From assembly GCF_054482595.1 (NCBI RefSeq), contig NZ_CM137008.1: DNA of 64,000 nt; one strand, 5' to 3'. Made by a program: the position numbers and the translations under genes. This document shows positions 4,403-62,388 of the stretch, in pieces (within the stretch, counting starts at the first letter, position 1; every line of letters starts with the position of its first letter). The notes under the pieces are model-generated. The model was not told the origin of the DNA. It did not search any database and was given only the letters and a program-made list of their open reading frames with translations.

Positions 4403-4488
4403 TGTAGGCAGGATAAGGCGTTTACGCCGCATCCGGCATTTGAGCAGGATGCCTGATGCGACGCTGATAGCGTCTTATCAGGCCTACA
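4403..4488. repeat. REP/BIME element pair
   Basis: Convergent GCCGGATGCGGCGTAAACGCCTTATCC / GCCTGATAAGACG...CATCAGGC palindromic units between cpxA and yiiM. Confidence 0.8.
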
Positions 4489-4497
4489 CTCCGAGGG

Positions 4498-5172
4498 TTA
4501 TTTTCCCCACAACCGGCGGGAAAAATCTTCGATCTTGCCGCTCAGTCGGCGCTTTTGCATCGTCCGCGTCCAGCTTTTCGATAACCCGGCGGCGGAGAGT
4601 AAACGGTGATACTGATCGTCATCAAACGGCATATGCCATGCGATGGCGGCAGCCTCCTGCACGGTCACATCGCTGACACGGGAAACCAACTCCAGCGGTG
4701 CGTCCGCAGACACTTTCCCTGGCGCTATCACGCTATACAACCATCCCACTTTACCCGTGTTTTGCATCAACTGCGCTATATCGCTGATATCAAAATGGTA
4801 ATTGAGTTTATAGCAAGGCGAGCGCGGCTGGCTGACCTGAATTAATGCCTCTCCCCAGCGGAAAATATCGCCCATATAAACATTACTTTCCGTCAGACCG
4901 TCGGTTGAGAGATTTTCACCAAACGCAGGCGCAACAAACAACTCCGCCTGTTCCGGAAATTCCCGCGCCCAGTAGAGATAGTGCTCACGAGGATAATGAC
5001 ACAGCGCTCTGTCTGGCCCGCCGTGAACCTTTTTCTCCGCCTGCTCGTCACCTTCCAGCCCCAGCTCCGTCAGCATCAACTCACCATCAACCTGGATTTT
5101 GGCAATTGCGCTGGGTTTGCCTTCGGGATAAGCCTGAATCTTGCCTGTGTATACATCAACCGGATATCGCAT
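4498..5172 (-). CDS. yiiM: MOSC-domain protein (6-N-hydroxylaminopurine resistance)
   Basis: ORF 4498..5202; internal Met (MRYPVDVYTGKIQ...) gives the 224-aa YiiM length. Confidence 0.85.
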   Translation of the reverse strand: MRYPVDVYTGKIQAYPEGKPSAIAKIQVDGELMLTELGLEGDEQAEKKVHGGPDRALCHYPREHYLYWAREFPEQAELFVAPAFGENLSTDGLTESNVYMGDIFRWGEALIQVSQPRSPCYKLNYHFDISDIAQLMQNTGKVGWLYSVIAPGKVSADAPLELVSRVSDVTVQEAAAIAWHMPFDDDQYHRLLSAAGLSKSWTRTMQKRRLSGKIEDFSRRLWGK

Positions 5173-5320
5173 CTGTTCCCTCTCCACGAGAAATTTCCCC
5201 ATTAGACCATATTTATTTTATGTCAGGCGTGCTGTTTTCGCGGTAAGTATCCAGGCAGGAACTCAATAGCAAACCGGACGAACGTTAGTTCATCCGGCGG
5301 TGGGGATTAAGGAAGCAGGT

Positions 5321-13276: not shown

Positions 13277-13600
13277 GCCGGATGCGGCGCGAGCGCCTTA
13301 TCCGGCCTACAGGTCGGCAACAGTTGTAGGCCTGATAAGACGCGACAGCGTCGCATCAGGCATTGATTGCCGGATACGGCACGAGTGCCTTATCCGGCCT
13401 ACAGGTCGGCAATAGTTGTAGGCCTGATAAGACGCGACAGCGTCGCATCAGGCATTGATTGCCGGATGCGGCACGAGCGCCTTATCCGGCCTACAGGTCG
13501 GCAATAGTTGTAGGCCTGATAAGACGCGACAGCGTCGCATCAGGCATTGATTGCCGGATGCGGCACGAGCGCCTTATCCGGCCTACGGGTCGTGCATCCG
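13277..13600. repeat. Tandem BIME array: about 3.5 copies of a 92-bp unit, each holding a convergent REP pair
   Basis: Unit starts (GCCGGAT(G/A)CGGC...) at 13277, 13369, 13461 and 13553; near-identical copies, few substitutions. Confidence 0.9.
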
Positions 13601-22143: not shown

Positions 22144-25100
22144 ATGCAGGTCAGCAGAAGGCAGTTCTTTAAGATCTGCGCTGGCGGTATGGCAGGCACC
22201 ACGGCAGCGGCACTGGGTTTTGCACCCAGCGTAGCACTCGCGGAAACCCGGCAGTATAAACTGCTGCGCACCCGCGAAACCCGTAATACCTGCACCTATT
22301 GTTCCGTAGGCTGTGGGCTGTTGATGTACAGCCTCGGTGACGGAGCAAAAAACGCCAAAGCATCTATCTTCCATATCGAAGGCGATCCGGATCACCCGGT
22401 CAACCGCGGTGCACTTTGTCCGAAAGGCGCTGGCCTGGTGGATTTCATCCACTCCGAAAGCCGTCTGAAGTTCCCGGAATACCGTGCCCCTGGTTCTGAT
22501 AAATGGCAGCAAATCAGTTGGGAAGAGGCGTTTGATCGCATCGCCAAACTGATGAAAGAAGACCGCGATGCTAACTACATTGCGCAAAACGCCGAAGGCG
22601 TGACCGTTAACCGCTGGCTCTCCACCGGGATGCTGTGTGCTTCCGCGTCGAGTAACGAAACCGGCTATTTAACGCAAAAATTCTCCCGCGCGCTGGGTAT
22701 GCTCGCGGTCGACAACCAGGCGCGTGTCTGACACGGACCAACGGTAGCAAGTCTTGCTCCAACATTTGGTCGCGGTGCGATGACCAACCACTGGGTCGAC
22801 ATCAAGAACGCCAACCTCGTCGTGGTGATGGGCGGTAACGCCGCTGAAGCTCACCCGGTCGGATTCCGCTGGGCGATGGAAGCCAAAATTCACAACGGCG
22901 CGAAGCTGATTGTGCTCGATCCTCGCTTTACGCGTACGGCGGCAGTGGCTGACTACTATGCCCCTATTCGTTCCGGTACTGACATTGCTTTCCTGTCAGG
23001 CGTATTGCTGTACCTGCTGAACAATGAAAAATTCAACCGCGAATACACCGAAGCCTATACCAACGCCAGCCTGATCGTGCGTGAGGATTACGGCTTTGAA
23101 GATGGCCTGTTCACCGGCTACGACGCAGAAAAACGCAAGTACGATAAATCCTCCTGGACTTACGAACTGGACGAAAACGGCTTCGCCAAACGCGATACCA
23201 CGCTGCAACATCCGCGCTGCGTGTGGAACTTGCTGAAACAGCACGTTTCCCGCTACACGCCAGATGTGGTTGAAAACATCTGTGGTACGCCAAAAGACGC
23301 GTTCCTGAAAGTCTGCGAATACATCGCAGAAACCAGTGCTCACGATAAAACTGCCTCGTTCCTGTATGCCCTCGGCTGGACGCAACACTCCGTTGGTGCG
23401 CAAAACATTCGTACGATGGCGATGATCCAGCTGCTGCTCGGCAACATGGGGATGGCAGGCGGCGGCGTTAACGCCCTGCGCGGTCACTCCAATATTCAGG
23501 GGCTGACGGACCTGGGCCTTCTGTCGCAGAGCCTGCCAGGTTACATGACGCTGCCAAGCGAGAAGCAGACCGATCTGCAAACCTACCTTACCGCCAACAC
23601 GCCAAAACCGCTGCTGGAAGGCCAGGTAAACTACTGGGGCAACTACCCGAAATTCTTCGTCTCCATGATGAAGGCTTTCTTTGGTGATAAAGCAACGGCG
23701 GAAAATAGCTGGGGCTTTGACTGGTTGCCGAAGTGGGATAAAGGCTACGACGTCCTGCAATACTTCGAGATGATGAAAGAGGGCAAGGTCAATGGCTATA
23801 TCTGCCAGGGCTTTAACCCTGTTGCCTCATTCCCGAACAAAAACAAAGTGATCGGTTGTCTGTCGAAACTGAAGTTCCTCGTCACCATCGACCCGCTGAA
23901 CACTGAAACCTCTAACTTCTGGCAGAACCACGGTGAGCTGAACGAAGTTGACTCGTCGAAGATCCAGACCGAAGTGTTCCGTCTGCCATCGACCTGCTTC
24001 GCGGAAGAGAACGGTTCTATCGTAAACTCAGGTCGCTGGTTGCAGTGGCACTGGAAAGGTGCGGACGCCCCAGGGATTGCGCTGACTGATGGCGAGATCC
24101 TCTCCGGTATCTTCCTGCGCTTGCGCAAGATGTATGCCGAACAGGGTGGCGCGAACCCGGACCAGGTGCTGAACATGACCTGGAACTACGCCATTCCGCA
24201 TGAGCCGAAGTCGGAAGAAGTAGCGATGGAGAGCAACGGTAAGGCGCTGGCCGATATTACCGATCCGGCAACCGGTGCGGTTATCGTCAAGAAAGGCCAA
24301 CAACTTAGCTCGTTTGCCCAACTTCGCGATGACGGTACAACTTCCTGTGGTTGCTGGATTTTCGCCGGTAGCTGGACGCCGGAAGGCAACCAGATGGCAC
24401 GCCGTGATAACGCCGATCCGTCTGGCCTCGGTAACACGCTGGGCTGGGCATGGGCATGGCCGCTTAACCGCCGCATTCTGTATAACCGCGCCTCCGCAGA
24501 TCCGCAGGGTAACCCGTGGGATCCGAAGCGTCAGTTGCTGAAATGGGACGGCACTAAGTGGACCGGCTGGGATATTCCGGACTACAGCGCAGCGCCTCCG
24601 GGTAGCGGCGTCGGGCCGTTTATCATGCAGCAGGAAGGCATGGGGCGTCTGTTTGCCCTCGATAAGATGGCGGAAGGTCCGTTCCCGGAACACTACGAGC
24701 CGTTTGAAACGCCGCTGGGAACTAACCCGCTGCATCCAAACGTTATCTCGAACCCGGCTGCACGTATCTTTAAAGACGACGCCGAAGCATTGGGTAAAGC
24801 CGATAAGTTCCCGTATGTCGGAACCACCTATCGTCTGACCGAGCACTTCCACTACTGGACCAAACACGCGCTGTTGAACGCGATTTTGCAACCAGAGCAG
24901 TTTGTGGAAATCGGGGAGTCGCTGGCGAATAAACTTGGCATTGCCCAGGGCGATACCGTGAAAGTCTCCTCCAACCGTGGCTATATCAAAGCCAAAGCGG
25001 TGGTGACCAAACGTATTCGTACGCTGAAAGCGAACGGCAAAGATATCGATACCATCGGTATTCCGATTCACTGGGGTTATGAAGGCGTAGCTAAAAAAGG

Positions 25101-58006: not shown

Positions 58007-58075
58007 AATGGTTCGTCTTTTAGCCGTTTTATTCAGTATAGATTTGCGGCGGAATCTAACAGAAAGCAAGCAAAG

Positions 58076-58320
58076 AAAAAAGGCGACAGATTACTCTGTC
58101 GCCTTTTTTCCTGACTCATAACCCTTAACGGGTCTTACAATCCTTGCAGGCCGCCAACACACCCTGTTTTTCCTTTAGCCGGAACAATCCGTGTTGATTC
58201 CATTTCCGTTTAATTACGTCTCCGGACGTTTGTCTTCCTGACAATCCTCTGTCTTCGCCTCCTGGCGCTCCTGACCCTCATCCTGAGTCATTGTTCCTGT
58301 TAGCGTCCTCGCTCTATGGG
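58076..58320 (-). ncRNA. csrC: CsrC small RNA (CsrA-sequestering)
   Basis: Minus strand reads AUAGAGCGAGGACGCUAACAGGAACAAUGACUCAGGAUGAGGGUCAGGAGCGCCAGGAGG...; more than ten GGA motifs; ends in hairpin AAGGCGACAGAGUAAUCUGUCGCCUUUUUU; no ORF. Confidence 0.85.
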
Positions 58321-58587: not shown

Positions 58588-59220
58588 TTGACTAATTTGA
58601 ATTATCAACAGACGCATTTTGTGATGAGTGCGCCTGATATTCGCCACCTACCTTCCGATACCGGAATTGAAGTGGCTTTTGCAGGCCGTTCCAACGCAGG
58701 TAAATCCAGCGCGCTGAACACGCTGACTAACCAGAAAAGCCTGGCTCGTACCTCAAAAACCCCAGGGCGCACCCAGCTTATCAACCTGTTTGAAGTGGCT
58801 GACGGCAAGCGTCTGGTTGACTTGCCTGGGTACGGTTATGCGGAAGTCCCGGAAGAGATGAAGCGCAAATGGCAGCGTGCGCTCGGCGAATACCTCGAAA
58901 AACGTCAGAGCCTGCAAGGTCTGGTGGTGCTAATGGATATTCGCCATCCGCTGAAAGATTTGGATCAGCAGATGATTGAGTGGGCGGTAGACAGCAATAT
59001 CGCCGTTCTGGTGCTGCTGACCAAAGCGGACAAACTGGCAAGCGGCGCACGTAAAGCGCAATTGAATATGGTGCGTGAAGCTGTACTGGCGTTTAACGGT
59101 GATGTGCAGGTTGAAACGTTTTCTTCGTTGAAGAAACAAGGCGTGGACAAGCTGCGGCAGAAACTGGATACCTGGTTTAGCGAGATGCAGCCTGTAGAAG
59201 AAACGCAGGACGGCGAATAA
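58588..59220 (+). CDS. engB: Ribosome-biogenesis GTPase EngB/YsxC (TTG start)
   Basis: 210 aa (M)[21 protein letters not shown]...; G1 motif GRSNAGKSS; ORF initiates at TTG with GGAG RBS; TATAAT-like -10 (GGTATAATCG) about 40 bp upstream. Confidence 0.9.
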
Positions 59221-59239
59221 TTTTCTTGCCTTAATGCTT

Positions 59240-59321
59240 GTGCCGGATGTGGCGTATCCGGCCCGTAAATTCAATAGATTACAATTCTACCGTTGGCCTG
59301 ATAAACATAGCGCATCAGGCA
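59240..59321. repeat. REP/BIME pair
   Basis: GTGCCGGATGTGGCGTATCCGGCCC and TTGGCCTGATAAACATAGCGCATCAGGCA. Confidence 0.75.
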
Positions 59322-59345
59322 TTACGGATCTTTTCTTTCGCCCAA

Positions 59346-59454
59346 TAAAAAACGCCCCAGTCATTACTGACTGGGGCGGCTAAAATATTCAGCCAAATCC
59401 GATTACGTGAAGTAAAAGGTCTGAAAGATAGAACATCTTACCTCTGTACCCTAC
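59346..59454 (-). ncRNA. spf: Spot 42 small RNA
   Basis: Minus strand reads GUAGGGUACAGAGGUAAGAUGUUCUAUCUUUCAGACCUUUUACUUCACGUAAUCGGAUUUGGCUGAAUAUUUUAGCCGCCCCAGUCAGUAAUGACUGGGGCGUUUUUUA with terminal hairpin plus U-tract. Confidence 0.9.
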
Positions 59455-59601
59455 GCGACTAACTTTACTCTTTTTTGTTCAGTTCAGAAAGCACTTTTTG
59501 TAATTTTTTTTCAGTTGTTGCATAGGAATTTCTAATAGCCATCACAAAACGTGACAGCTTATGTTGCTTACTTACGAAAAAAGGGCATGTTCAGGCGAAT
59601 C

Positions 59602-62388
59602 TTAGTGCGCCTGATCCCAGTTTTCGCCACTCCCCACTTCCACCAGCAACGGCACATCCAGACGGGTACAGTTTTCCATCAGTTGATGAATCTGCTTCGC
59701 GACGGCATCAACATCATCTTTATGAACTTCAAATACCAGTTCATCGTGTACCTGCATGATCATACGTACACGCGGTTGCTCAGCCTGTAACCACGCATCA
59801 ACGGCAATCATCGCCCGTTTGATAATGTCGGCGGCGGTTCCCTGCATTGGCGCGTTAATGGCTGCACGTTCAGCCGCTGCACGACGAGCACCATTGCTGG
59901 ATTTGATATCCGGCAGATACAGACGGCGTCCGTCCAGCGTTTCAACGTAGCCCTGCTCTTTCGCCTGAGCACGGGTGCGTTCCATATACTCCAGCACGCC
60001 AGGGTAGCGTTCGAAGTAAAGGTCCATGTACTTCTGCGCTTCTTTACGTGGAATGTTCAATTGCCGCGCCAGACCGAAAGCACTCATGCCATAAATCAGA
60101 CCAAAGTTGATCGCTTTCGCGCTACGGCGTTGCTCGCTGGTGACGGTTTCCAGTGGCAAACCAAACACTTCTGCCGCCGTTGCCCGGTGGATATCTTTTC
60201 CTTCCGCGAATGCGGTCAGCAAGCCTTTGTCACGCGAAAGATGCGCCATAATGCGCAGTTCAATCTGCGAGTAGTCCGCTGAGACAATCACATAATCCTC
60301 TGGCGCAATAAACGCCTGGCGGATACGACGACCTTCTTCGTTACGCACCGGAATGTTTTGCAGGTTAGGATCGGTTGACGATAAACGTCCCGTTGCAGTT
60401 ACTGCCTGGTGATAAGAGGTATGCACACGCCCGGTTTTCGGGTTGATCATCAGCGGCAGCTTGTCGGTGTAGGTCGATTTCAGCTTCGCCAGACCACGAT
60501 ACTCCAGAATCACTTTTGGCAACGGATAGTCCAGCGCCAGTTCTTCCAGTACCTCTTCCGACGTTGACGGCGCGCCACCCGGCGTTTTCTTCAGCGGTTT
60601 AATACCCTGTTTTTCAAAGAGAATGGTTTGTAACTGCTTGGTGGAAGAAAGGTTAAATTCTTCACCTGCAATTTCATGCGCTTTCTTTTCCAGCTCAGCC
60701 AGACGCAAGGTGAGCTCTTCAGAATGATTGTGCAGCACTTTCGGATCGATCTTCACACCGTTACGTTCAATGCGTGAAAGCACCGGCACCAGCGGCATTT
60801 CGATATTCTCGAAGACGTTCAACGGCCCTTTGTGTTTTTGCAGATCTGGCCACATTTTCAGATGCAACTGCAAGGTGACATCAGCATCTTCGGCGGCGTA
60901 ACGTCCGGCCTCTTCGAGGGCAATCTGGTTAAAGGTCAGTTGATTTTTGCCTTTACCCGCAATCTCTTCAAAAGTGATGGTTTTGTGCTTCAACCAACGT
61001 TCCGCGAGGCTGTCCATATCGTGACGCCCGGCAACGCTATTGAGAATGTAGGACTCCAGCATGGTATCAAACGCAATCCCACGCAGCTCAATGCCGTAAT
61101 TCGCCAGAATACCGCGATCGTATTTCAGGTTTTGCCCGACCTTCAGCGCCTTTTCATCTTCCAGCAGCGGTTTTAGCAACTCGAGTGCACGCTCGCGAGA
61201 GATTTGATCGGGCGCATCAAGATAATCATGAGCAACCGGAATATATGCCGCTACACCTGGCTCGATAGCAAAAGAAAGCCCGACCAGGTTAGCAGAGATG
61301 TTATCAAGGCTGTCGGTTTCGGTATCAAATGCAAATACCGGCGCTTTTTCCAGCTTCGCAATCCACGCTTTCAGTGTTTCTTCATCAAGGATGGTGACGT
61401 AGTTGTCATAAGAAATCACCGTTGCCGTCACTTCTGGCGCTTCGTCTGCAACACTGGTTTCCTGTGGCTTCGCGGCTGGTTTTGCCCCTTTGGCCTGTAA
61501 CCATTTGCCCGCTTCGACATCAGCAGTCCAGCGTTTGAACTCATACTTTTTGAACAGCCCCAACAACTCTTCCGCTGCCGGTTGCTGCACTTCCAGTTGT
61601 TCACAGGTCAGCTCCAGTTCAACGTCGGTTTTAATCGTCGCCAGCTGGTATGAGAGATAAGCAACTTCTTTGTTTTGCTCGAGCTTCGCTGCCATTGTTT
61701 TCGCGCCACGGAAGCTCAACCCAGCAATTTTTTCTGGCTCGGCATACAGCGTATCCAGTCCGCCAAGACCTTGCAGCAATGCCTGCGCGGTTTTTTCACC
61801 GACGCCCGGTACGCCAGGAATGTTATCAGAGGAGTCACCCATCAGCGCCAGGAAATCGATGATCAGTTCTGGCGGCACGCCGTACTTATTCACCACCTCT
61901 TCCGGTCCGAGGATGGTATTCGTCATGGTATTGATAAGCGTAATATTTGGCGTCACCAGCTGCGCCATATCTTTATCGCCAGTGCTGATCAGCACCGGAC
62001 GCCCGGCTTTTTCGGCTTCGCGCGCCAGAGTACCGATAACGTCGTCCGCTTCTACGCCAGAAACCGCCAGCAGCGGCAGTCCCATCGCTTTAACCATCGC
62101 GTGCAAGGGTTCGATTTGTGCACGCAGATCGTCCGGCATTGGCGGGCGATGTGATTTGTAATGTTCAAACAGTTCATCACGAAAGGTTTTTCCCTTGGCG
62201 TCAAAGACCACCGCTGCATGCGTCGGTTTATATTGCATGATCAGACTGCGCAGCATGTTGAGGACACCATACATCGCACCGGTCGGCTCGCCTGCGCTGT
62301 TAGTCAGCGGGGGAAACGCGTGATATGCGCGATAAAGATAAGATGAACCATCTACAAGGATAAGTGGATTTTGGGGGATCTGAACCAT
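59602..62388 (-). CDS. polA: DNA polymerase I
   Basis: 928 aa, [28 protein letters not shown]...; 5'-3' exonuclease, 3'-5' exonuclease and polymerase domains. Confidence 0.97.

Follow-up and report, generated by a model that had tools for sequence, protein, structure and literature searches.

Spot 42, the product of spf, is among the best-characterised bacterial sRNAs. It is a 109-nt Hfq-binding RNA, abundant in glucose, repressed by CRP and Hfq-dependent, and it base-pairs with galK mRNA and with further mRNAs needed for non-preferred carbon sources, in a multi-output feed-forward loop (PMC8916003). The same study reported that a chromosomally tagged protein encoded within the RNA, SpfP, is made and co-purifies with CRP; that SpfP binds CRP and keeps some promoters from being activated; that SpfP from a pairing-deficient, recoded construct blocks growth on galactose; and that there is a temperature effect on SpfP. 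The Spot 42 transcript is now classed as dual-function (PMC8916003), and spfP is intact in the copy described here.

We are all but certain that the interval 59346-59454 of the window (the whole 64,000-nt stretch of DNA that was analysed) is the chromosomal spf gene of an E. coli strain, acting as set out below. Read on the minus strand from 59454 to 59346, its 109 nt are GUAGGGUACAGAGGUAAGAUGUUCUAUCUUUCAGACCUUUUACUUCACGUAAUCGGAUUUGGCUGAAUAUUUUAGCCGCCCCAGUCAGUAAUGACUGGGGCGUUUUUUA, beginning with GUAGGGUACAGAGG and ending with GGGGCGUUUUUUA. The gene and its neighbours are placed as follows:

59346..59454, minus strand: spf, mature 109-nt Spot 42 RNA (Rfam RF00021 and identity to K-12 b3864)
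59602..62388, minus strand: polA, DNA polymerase I, 928 aa, upstream on the same strand (open reading frame list and annotation of matching records)
58588..59220, plus strand: yihA/engB, GTPase, 210 aa, downstream and convergent (open reading frame list and annotation of matching records)
58064-58317, minus strand: CsrC sRNA in the yihA-yihI spacer (Rfam RF00084, 278.7 bits, full model)

An earlier note had read this interval as a minus-strand Spot 42 sequence of 109 nt, complete from end to end and lying between polA and engB, and had proposed a covariance-model scan, in which the lack of a match would speak against it. In Rfam release 15, Spot_42 (RF00021) is matched at 122.8 bits (gathering score 80, E = 3.6e-24) at 59346-59464 (minus strand); the match spans model positions 1-115 of 115 and is not truncated, and no second Spot_42 match was found in the scan of the whole window. 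The match is 10 nt longer upstream than the mature RNA, because model positions 1-10 precede the mature 5′ end. All 109 nt (109/109) are the same as the first 109 nt of E. coli K-12 spf (b3864), for which the RefSeq annotation covers 111 nt and runs 2 nt further (59344-59454 in the window). The full-length reading is thus borne out by the full model match and the K-12 identity, and its position by the open reading frame list together with the annotation of K-12 and other records. Among 5426 complete E. coli genomes, 5424 carry the 109-nt spf at 99% identity or more, as a single copy per genome, and a 901-nt stretch around it is matched in 5425, in several of them with 100% identity; the records have polA and yihA annotated under the 901-nt match.

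The order along the locus is the polA stop, 147 nt, spf, 125 nt, and the convergent yihA/engB gene with csrC beyond, which follows the syntenic order of K-12 (polA, spf (b3864) with spfP (b4837) inside, yihA, csrC, yihI, hemN). Over the 381-nt polA-yihA spacer, the only difference from K-12 is one extra C (CCC in the window, CC in K-12), directly after the polA stop (window 59575-59591, minus strand), about 130 nt upstream of +1. The 125 nt from the spf terminator to the yihA stop are taken up by two REP-like palindromes, at 59242-59262 (GCCGGATACGCCACATCCGGC) and 59296-59320 (GCCTGATGCGCTATGTTTATCAGGC); both are the same in K-12.

The RNA encoded at the interval is divided as follows (all on the minus strand):

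59407..59454, minus strand: hairpin 1, RNA nt 1-48, holding conserved base-pairing sequences (MFE and centroid fold)
59389..59436, minus strand: spfP coding sequence, 15 codons plus UGA, MFYLSDLLLHVIGFG, RNA nt 19-66 (identical to K-12 b4837)
59395..59406, minus strand: A/U-rich single-stranded linker, RNA nt 49-60, GUAAUCGGAUUU (unpaired in the MFE, the centroid and the Rfam consensus)
59378..59394, minus strand: hairpin 2, GGCUGAAUAUUUUAGCC (fold)
59347..59377, minus strand: Rho-independent terminator, a 10-bp G+C-rich stem with a GUAA loop and a U6 tract (scan match 59378-59353)

The spf strand folds into three hairpins, in the MFE and the centroid structure alike, at -40.6 kcal/mol (z = -5.08), and none of 200 shuffles folds as well; the Rfam match (E = 3.6e-24) and the fold (z = -5.08) are both far beyond chance. 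The terminator hairpin and U-tract named in the earlier note are present as CCCCAGTCAGTAATGACTGGGG at 59355-59376, followed by T6 at 59347-59352. We further tested the explicit three-hairpin structure (35 pairs) on 96 distinct sequences, including that of the window: 99.0% of the cells form standard pairs, falling to 39-51% when the partners are slid by 1-3 columns, compensatory double changes occur at 9 pairs (85 cells), and 0 of 500 shuffles reach any of the observed measures. The folds, the terminator scan and the 96-sequence test therefore agree on three hairpins ending in a Rho-independent terminator, the architecture by which Spot 42 is recognised. Covarying pairs cluster in the terminator stem (8 of 10 pairs; 99.3% of cells paired) and at the closing pair of hairpin 2, whose G-C becomes A-U in 13 of the 96 sequences (95.3% of the cells of this hairpin are paired). 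Hairpin 1, with 19 pairs that are 100% paired and three one-sided changes, all wobble-compatible, is nearly invariant and therefore uninformative by covariation. An RNAalifold consensus on the MAFFT alignment had left out hairpin 2, because of indels in its loop, and was replaced by the explicit full-structure test.

The homologous sequences come from a degenerate 25-mer placed over the conserved core, which recovered at least 120 loci in one-genome-per-species collections (Enterobacterales, Vibrionales, Aeromonadales and two Alteromonadales); among the matches listed, 119 loci had room for the full RNA and gave 97 distinct sequences. The search pattern fixes 19 bases within nt 13-37, so that invariance there is not independent evidence; nt 1-12 lie outside it and are invariant in all 119 listed loci (119/119). 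The 5′ pairing region is near-invariant, as expected of Spot 42: 114 of the 119 have the same nt 1-41 as the window. The conserved position between polA and yihA/engB, which is also stated in PMC3295665, was recovered as well, since 87 of the 119 listed loci show the whole arrangement of polA, spf and convergent yihA, most of the others ending at contig ends. In most genera spf follows polA by 140-240 nt on the same strand; in Aeromonas species it adjoins yihA with no polA upstream.

The 15-codon spfP frame, MFYLSDLLLHVIGFG, is intact in the window, starts at nt 19 and has the same translation as K-12 b4837; its start codon and the upstream GAGG lie within hairpin 1, and its UGA stop in the 5′ arm of hairpin 2. 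Among the matches listed, 110 of 119 homologous loci retain the 15-aa frame, and in the other 9 the stop codon is lost or moved while the RNA persists; this group includes Yersinia, the Vibrio breoganii/ezurae group, Bowmanella and Aliagarivorans. For example, the frame is cut to 10 aa or lengthened to at least 24 aa in the variants of Aliagarivorans taiwanensis (L095), V. breoganii (L027), Vibrio sp. UCD-FRSSP16_30 (L058), V. ezurae (L062) and Yersinia artesiana (L045). The A. taiwanensis locus (5091-5202, plus strand; 86.8 bits) and the V. breoganii locus (99.2 bits) pass Rfam, and the V. breoganii/ezurae group has a different stem (GAAUUU/AAAUUC) in place of hairpin 2. Bowmanella yangjiangensis (L077, 12965-13048, minus strand) carries a short Spot 42-like gene of about 72 nt, with yihA still downstream: its 5′ 40 nt are the same as in E. 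coli and the terminator follows directly, so that hairpin 2, the linker region and the SpfP stop codon are missing, and at 50.6 bits it falls under the Rfam gathering score of 80. We also considered mobile or plasmid-borne copies of spf and rejected them: the 13 PLSDB matches are chromosome-sized records or chromosomal blocks filed as plasmids. These blocks carry dsbA-polA-spf-yihA-yihI-hemN-glnG and are typed non-mobilizable; one plasmid-filed example is the 148-kb 'plasmid 3' of Salmonella Senftenberg (NZ_LN868945.1, L124).

Extended complementarity to the galK initiation region, a functional mark of Spot 42 in E. coli, was found with K-12 galK (the target taken was -40..+40 of the K-12 gene, the strain's own galK lying outside the window). 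Spot 42 nt 1-62 is predicted to form an interrupted duplex of -44.7 kcal/mol with positions -20..+40, across the Shine-Dalgarno sequence and the AUG, and the linker (nt 49-60) participates in it. No control was as good, neither among 1000 shuffled targets (0/1000; mean -21.1) nor among 993 random genomic 80-mers (0/993; mean -22.9). When whole-length Spot 42 was set against galK -70..+50, the duplex was unrealistic, extending over 107 nt and unfolding the terminator (-60.4 kcal/mol; controls as good: 1/500 shuffles, 4/498 genomic targets), and the nt 1-62 test took its place.

Upstream of the mature 5′ end, the following elements were assigned (all on the minus strand):

59528..59549, minus strand: cAMP-CRP operator sequence TTTTGTGATGGCTATTAGAAAT, centre -84.5 (8/10 match and published site)
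59494..59514, minus strand: A-rich block CTGAAAAAAAATTACAAAAAG, -60 to -40 (most positions at least 80% conserved across genera)
59485..59490, minus strand: putative weak -35-like element TTTCTG, 17-nt spacer
59462..59467, minus strand: -10 hexamer TAAAGT, positions -13 to -8 (cross-genus conservation)

The best upstream match to TGTGA-N6-TCACA (8/10) is TGTGATGGCTATTAGA, centred at -84.5, and the 22-mer TTTTGTGATGGCTATTAGAAAT is exactly the E. coli spf CRP site given in PMC3295665, in a passage that credits Polayes et al. 1988. The operator is not conserved between genera in 116 distinct upstream sequences, and PMC3295665 describes conservation of the spf CRP site as weak in vibrios; we therefore assign it by its identity with the E. 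coli site already published. Of the same 116 sequences, which come from many genera, at least 95% retain T(-13), A(-12), A(-10) and T(-8), each taken singly, and TTT at -36 to -34 reaches the same level of conservation (at least 95%). Judged by position and conservation, TAAAGT and TTTCTG would form the spf promoter; the A-rich block CTGAAAAAAAATTACAAAAAG resembles an UP element and might act as one. A generic sigma-70 consensus scan of 59100-59750 called no promoter because the -35 (TTTCTG) is weak, so this null result is not evidence against the promoter.

Every sequence element needed for the known mechanism is present and identical to K-12. Because of this identity the individual steps can be taken for this copy from the literature or from what the K-12 gene does. 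The gene would be transcribed from its own sigma-70 promoter into a 109-nt RNA ending at the intrinsic terminator. With Hfq, for which the terminator U-tract and the A/U-rich single-stranded stretches are the sequence correlates here, exposed conserved segments would base-pair with mRNAs for the use of non-preferred carbon sources at their translation-initiation regions (galK foremost, followed by srlA, nanC, xylF, fucI and others); pairing would block translation and promote decay or termination, and together with CRP this would make up a multi-output feed-forward loop. Translation of this RNA would also yield the 15-aa SpfP, in larger amounts at high temperature as hairpin 1 opens, and SpfP would bind CRP and block the activation of some promoters, reinforcing catabolite repression. 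We found no sequence-level evidence against the spf reading, and the sole correction to the earlier note is that the locus is better annotated as dual-function, spf plus spfP.

The coding part of this mechanism could be disputed, in that Spot 42 might be a regulator at the RNA level only, its open reading frame incidental and kept by RNA-level constraint, with SpfP having no physiological role in this strain. The frame overlaps the invariant pairing regions, so its conservation is inseparable from such constraint, the RNA persists in the nine listed loci (of 119) without a normal spfP stop, and in older work Spot 42 was concluded not to be an mRNA (Rice 1987, according to the passage in PMC3295665 that cites it). 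We nevertheless think this quite improbable, given the direct experiments in E. coli (PMC8916003: SpfP made, CRP co-purification, galactose growth block) on a protein whose reading frame is identical to the one here, and given that K-12 RefSeq now annotates spfP (b4837). As for an inactive relic or an assembly duplicate of spf, we found no point in support of it, and it is practically inconceivable: gene, promoter, operator and terminator are 100% identical to those of the functional K-12 gene, there is one spf copy per E. coli genome, and the window has one Spot_42 match.

The relation to polA is less simple. Within 59100-59750 the scan returned no terminator-like site besides the spf terminator, and none of the intrinsic type between the polA stop (59602) and spf +1 (59454); polA transcripts may therefore end at the spf terminator. 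This, the place of spf on the polA strand, 140-240 nt after it in most genera, and the reported influence of Spot 42 on Pol I activity (Polayes 1988, as quoted in PMC3295665) would also suit a locus that is mainly a 3′ element of polA, its hairpin and U-tract being the polA terminator and its RNA a by-product of read-through or processing, with no independent gene. It is very improbable that this is so: the -10 element and the upstream block are conserved across genera and correctly spaced from the start of the mature RNA, and regulation through the CRP operator is specific to spf (PMC8916003, PMC3295665). Aeromonas, with spf beside yihA and no polA upstream, argues against it as well. The older K-12 literature describes a triphosphate 5′ end at the mature start and Spot 42 expression from a fragment without polA. 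An independent spf gene and a polA-terminator role are not mutually exclusive, and the Spot 42 terminator could be the usual stopping point of polA transcripts, with the full Spot 42 sequence at their 3′ ends, a possible basis for the Pol I link, which we put forward as a rather unlikely idea. The passages in PMC3295665 that bear on it describe a decades-old report of lower DNA polymerase I activity when Spot 42 is reduced or spf is deleted, and quote Polayes 1988 for an influence left unexplained. If true, the effect could run through polA mRNA stability or 3′-end formation, or through Hfq loading on the shared 3′ end.

We therefore return to the independent spf gene, a feature already described, with the same sequence as the reference gene. 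The value of the result lies in correct annotation only, and an identical copy therefore adds nothing new on carbon catabolite repression. Among the matches listed, many RefSeq/PGAP records of E. coli have nothing ("none") or only spfP annotated at the interval; a scan that recovers spf with exact boundaries therefore works as intended. For example, spf and csrC are both missing from the annotation of the PGAP record NZ_AP018808.1, and its yihA-yihI spacer (L001, 4110-4276), the place of csrC in K-12, has a pseudo-CDS ('hypothetical protein; frameshifted; internal stop') that is probably an annotation artefact over the sRNA gene. Elsewhere in the window, the Rfam scan found the ES222 sRNA (RF02755; 51179-51286, minus strand; 133 bits, full model), a SECIS_3 selenocysteine insertion element (22726-22784, plus strand; 84.3 bits), which by its map position presumably lies within the formate dehydrogenase-O gene fdoG, and four copies of naRNA4 (RF02564), at 4407-4484 (plus strand) and at 13329-13399, 13421-13491 and 13513-13583 (minus strand), the three minus-strand copies standing in tandem at 92-nt spacing.

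The closest described system is spf (b3864)/spfP (b4837) of K-12 MG1655 (RF00021), which has the same 109 nt, SpfP frame, promoter and CRP operator and the same neighbours (polA, yihA, csrC, yihI, hemN), and from which this locus differs by the extra C in the polA-spf spacer, outside every assigned element. The Spot 42 genes of Vibrionaceae and Aeromonadaceae (e.g., Aliivibrio salmonicida; PMC3295665) share the 5′ 41 nt, the three hairpins, the terminator and the downstream yihA, but differ at nt 42-43 (wobble-compatible) and, by compensatory changes, in hairpins 2 and 3. Their SpfP C-terminus is GLG or ECG, against GFG here, conservation of the CRP site is weak, and Aeromonas is without the upstream polA.

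SgrS/SgrT is a dual-function Hfq-dependent sRNA of enterobacterial sugar metabolism and, like Spot 42, joins base pairing and a small protein acting in the same pathway on one transcript. The coding and pairing parts are separate in SgrS, whereas they overlap in Spot 42 (PMC8916003), and sequence and regulator are unrelated, so SgrS/SgrT is not a family member. The CRP-activated sRNA CyaR shares with Spot 42 the dependence on Hfq and direct control by cAMP-CRP (PMC8916003), but the sign of its regulation is opposite and its sequence unrelated; it too stands outside the Spot 42 family, to which the gene in the window belongs.
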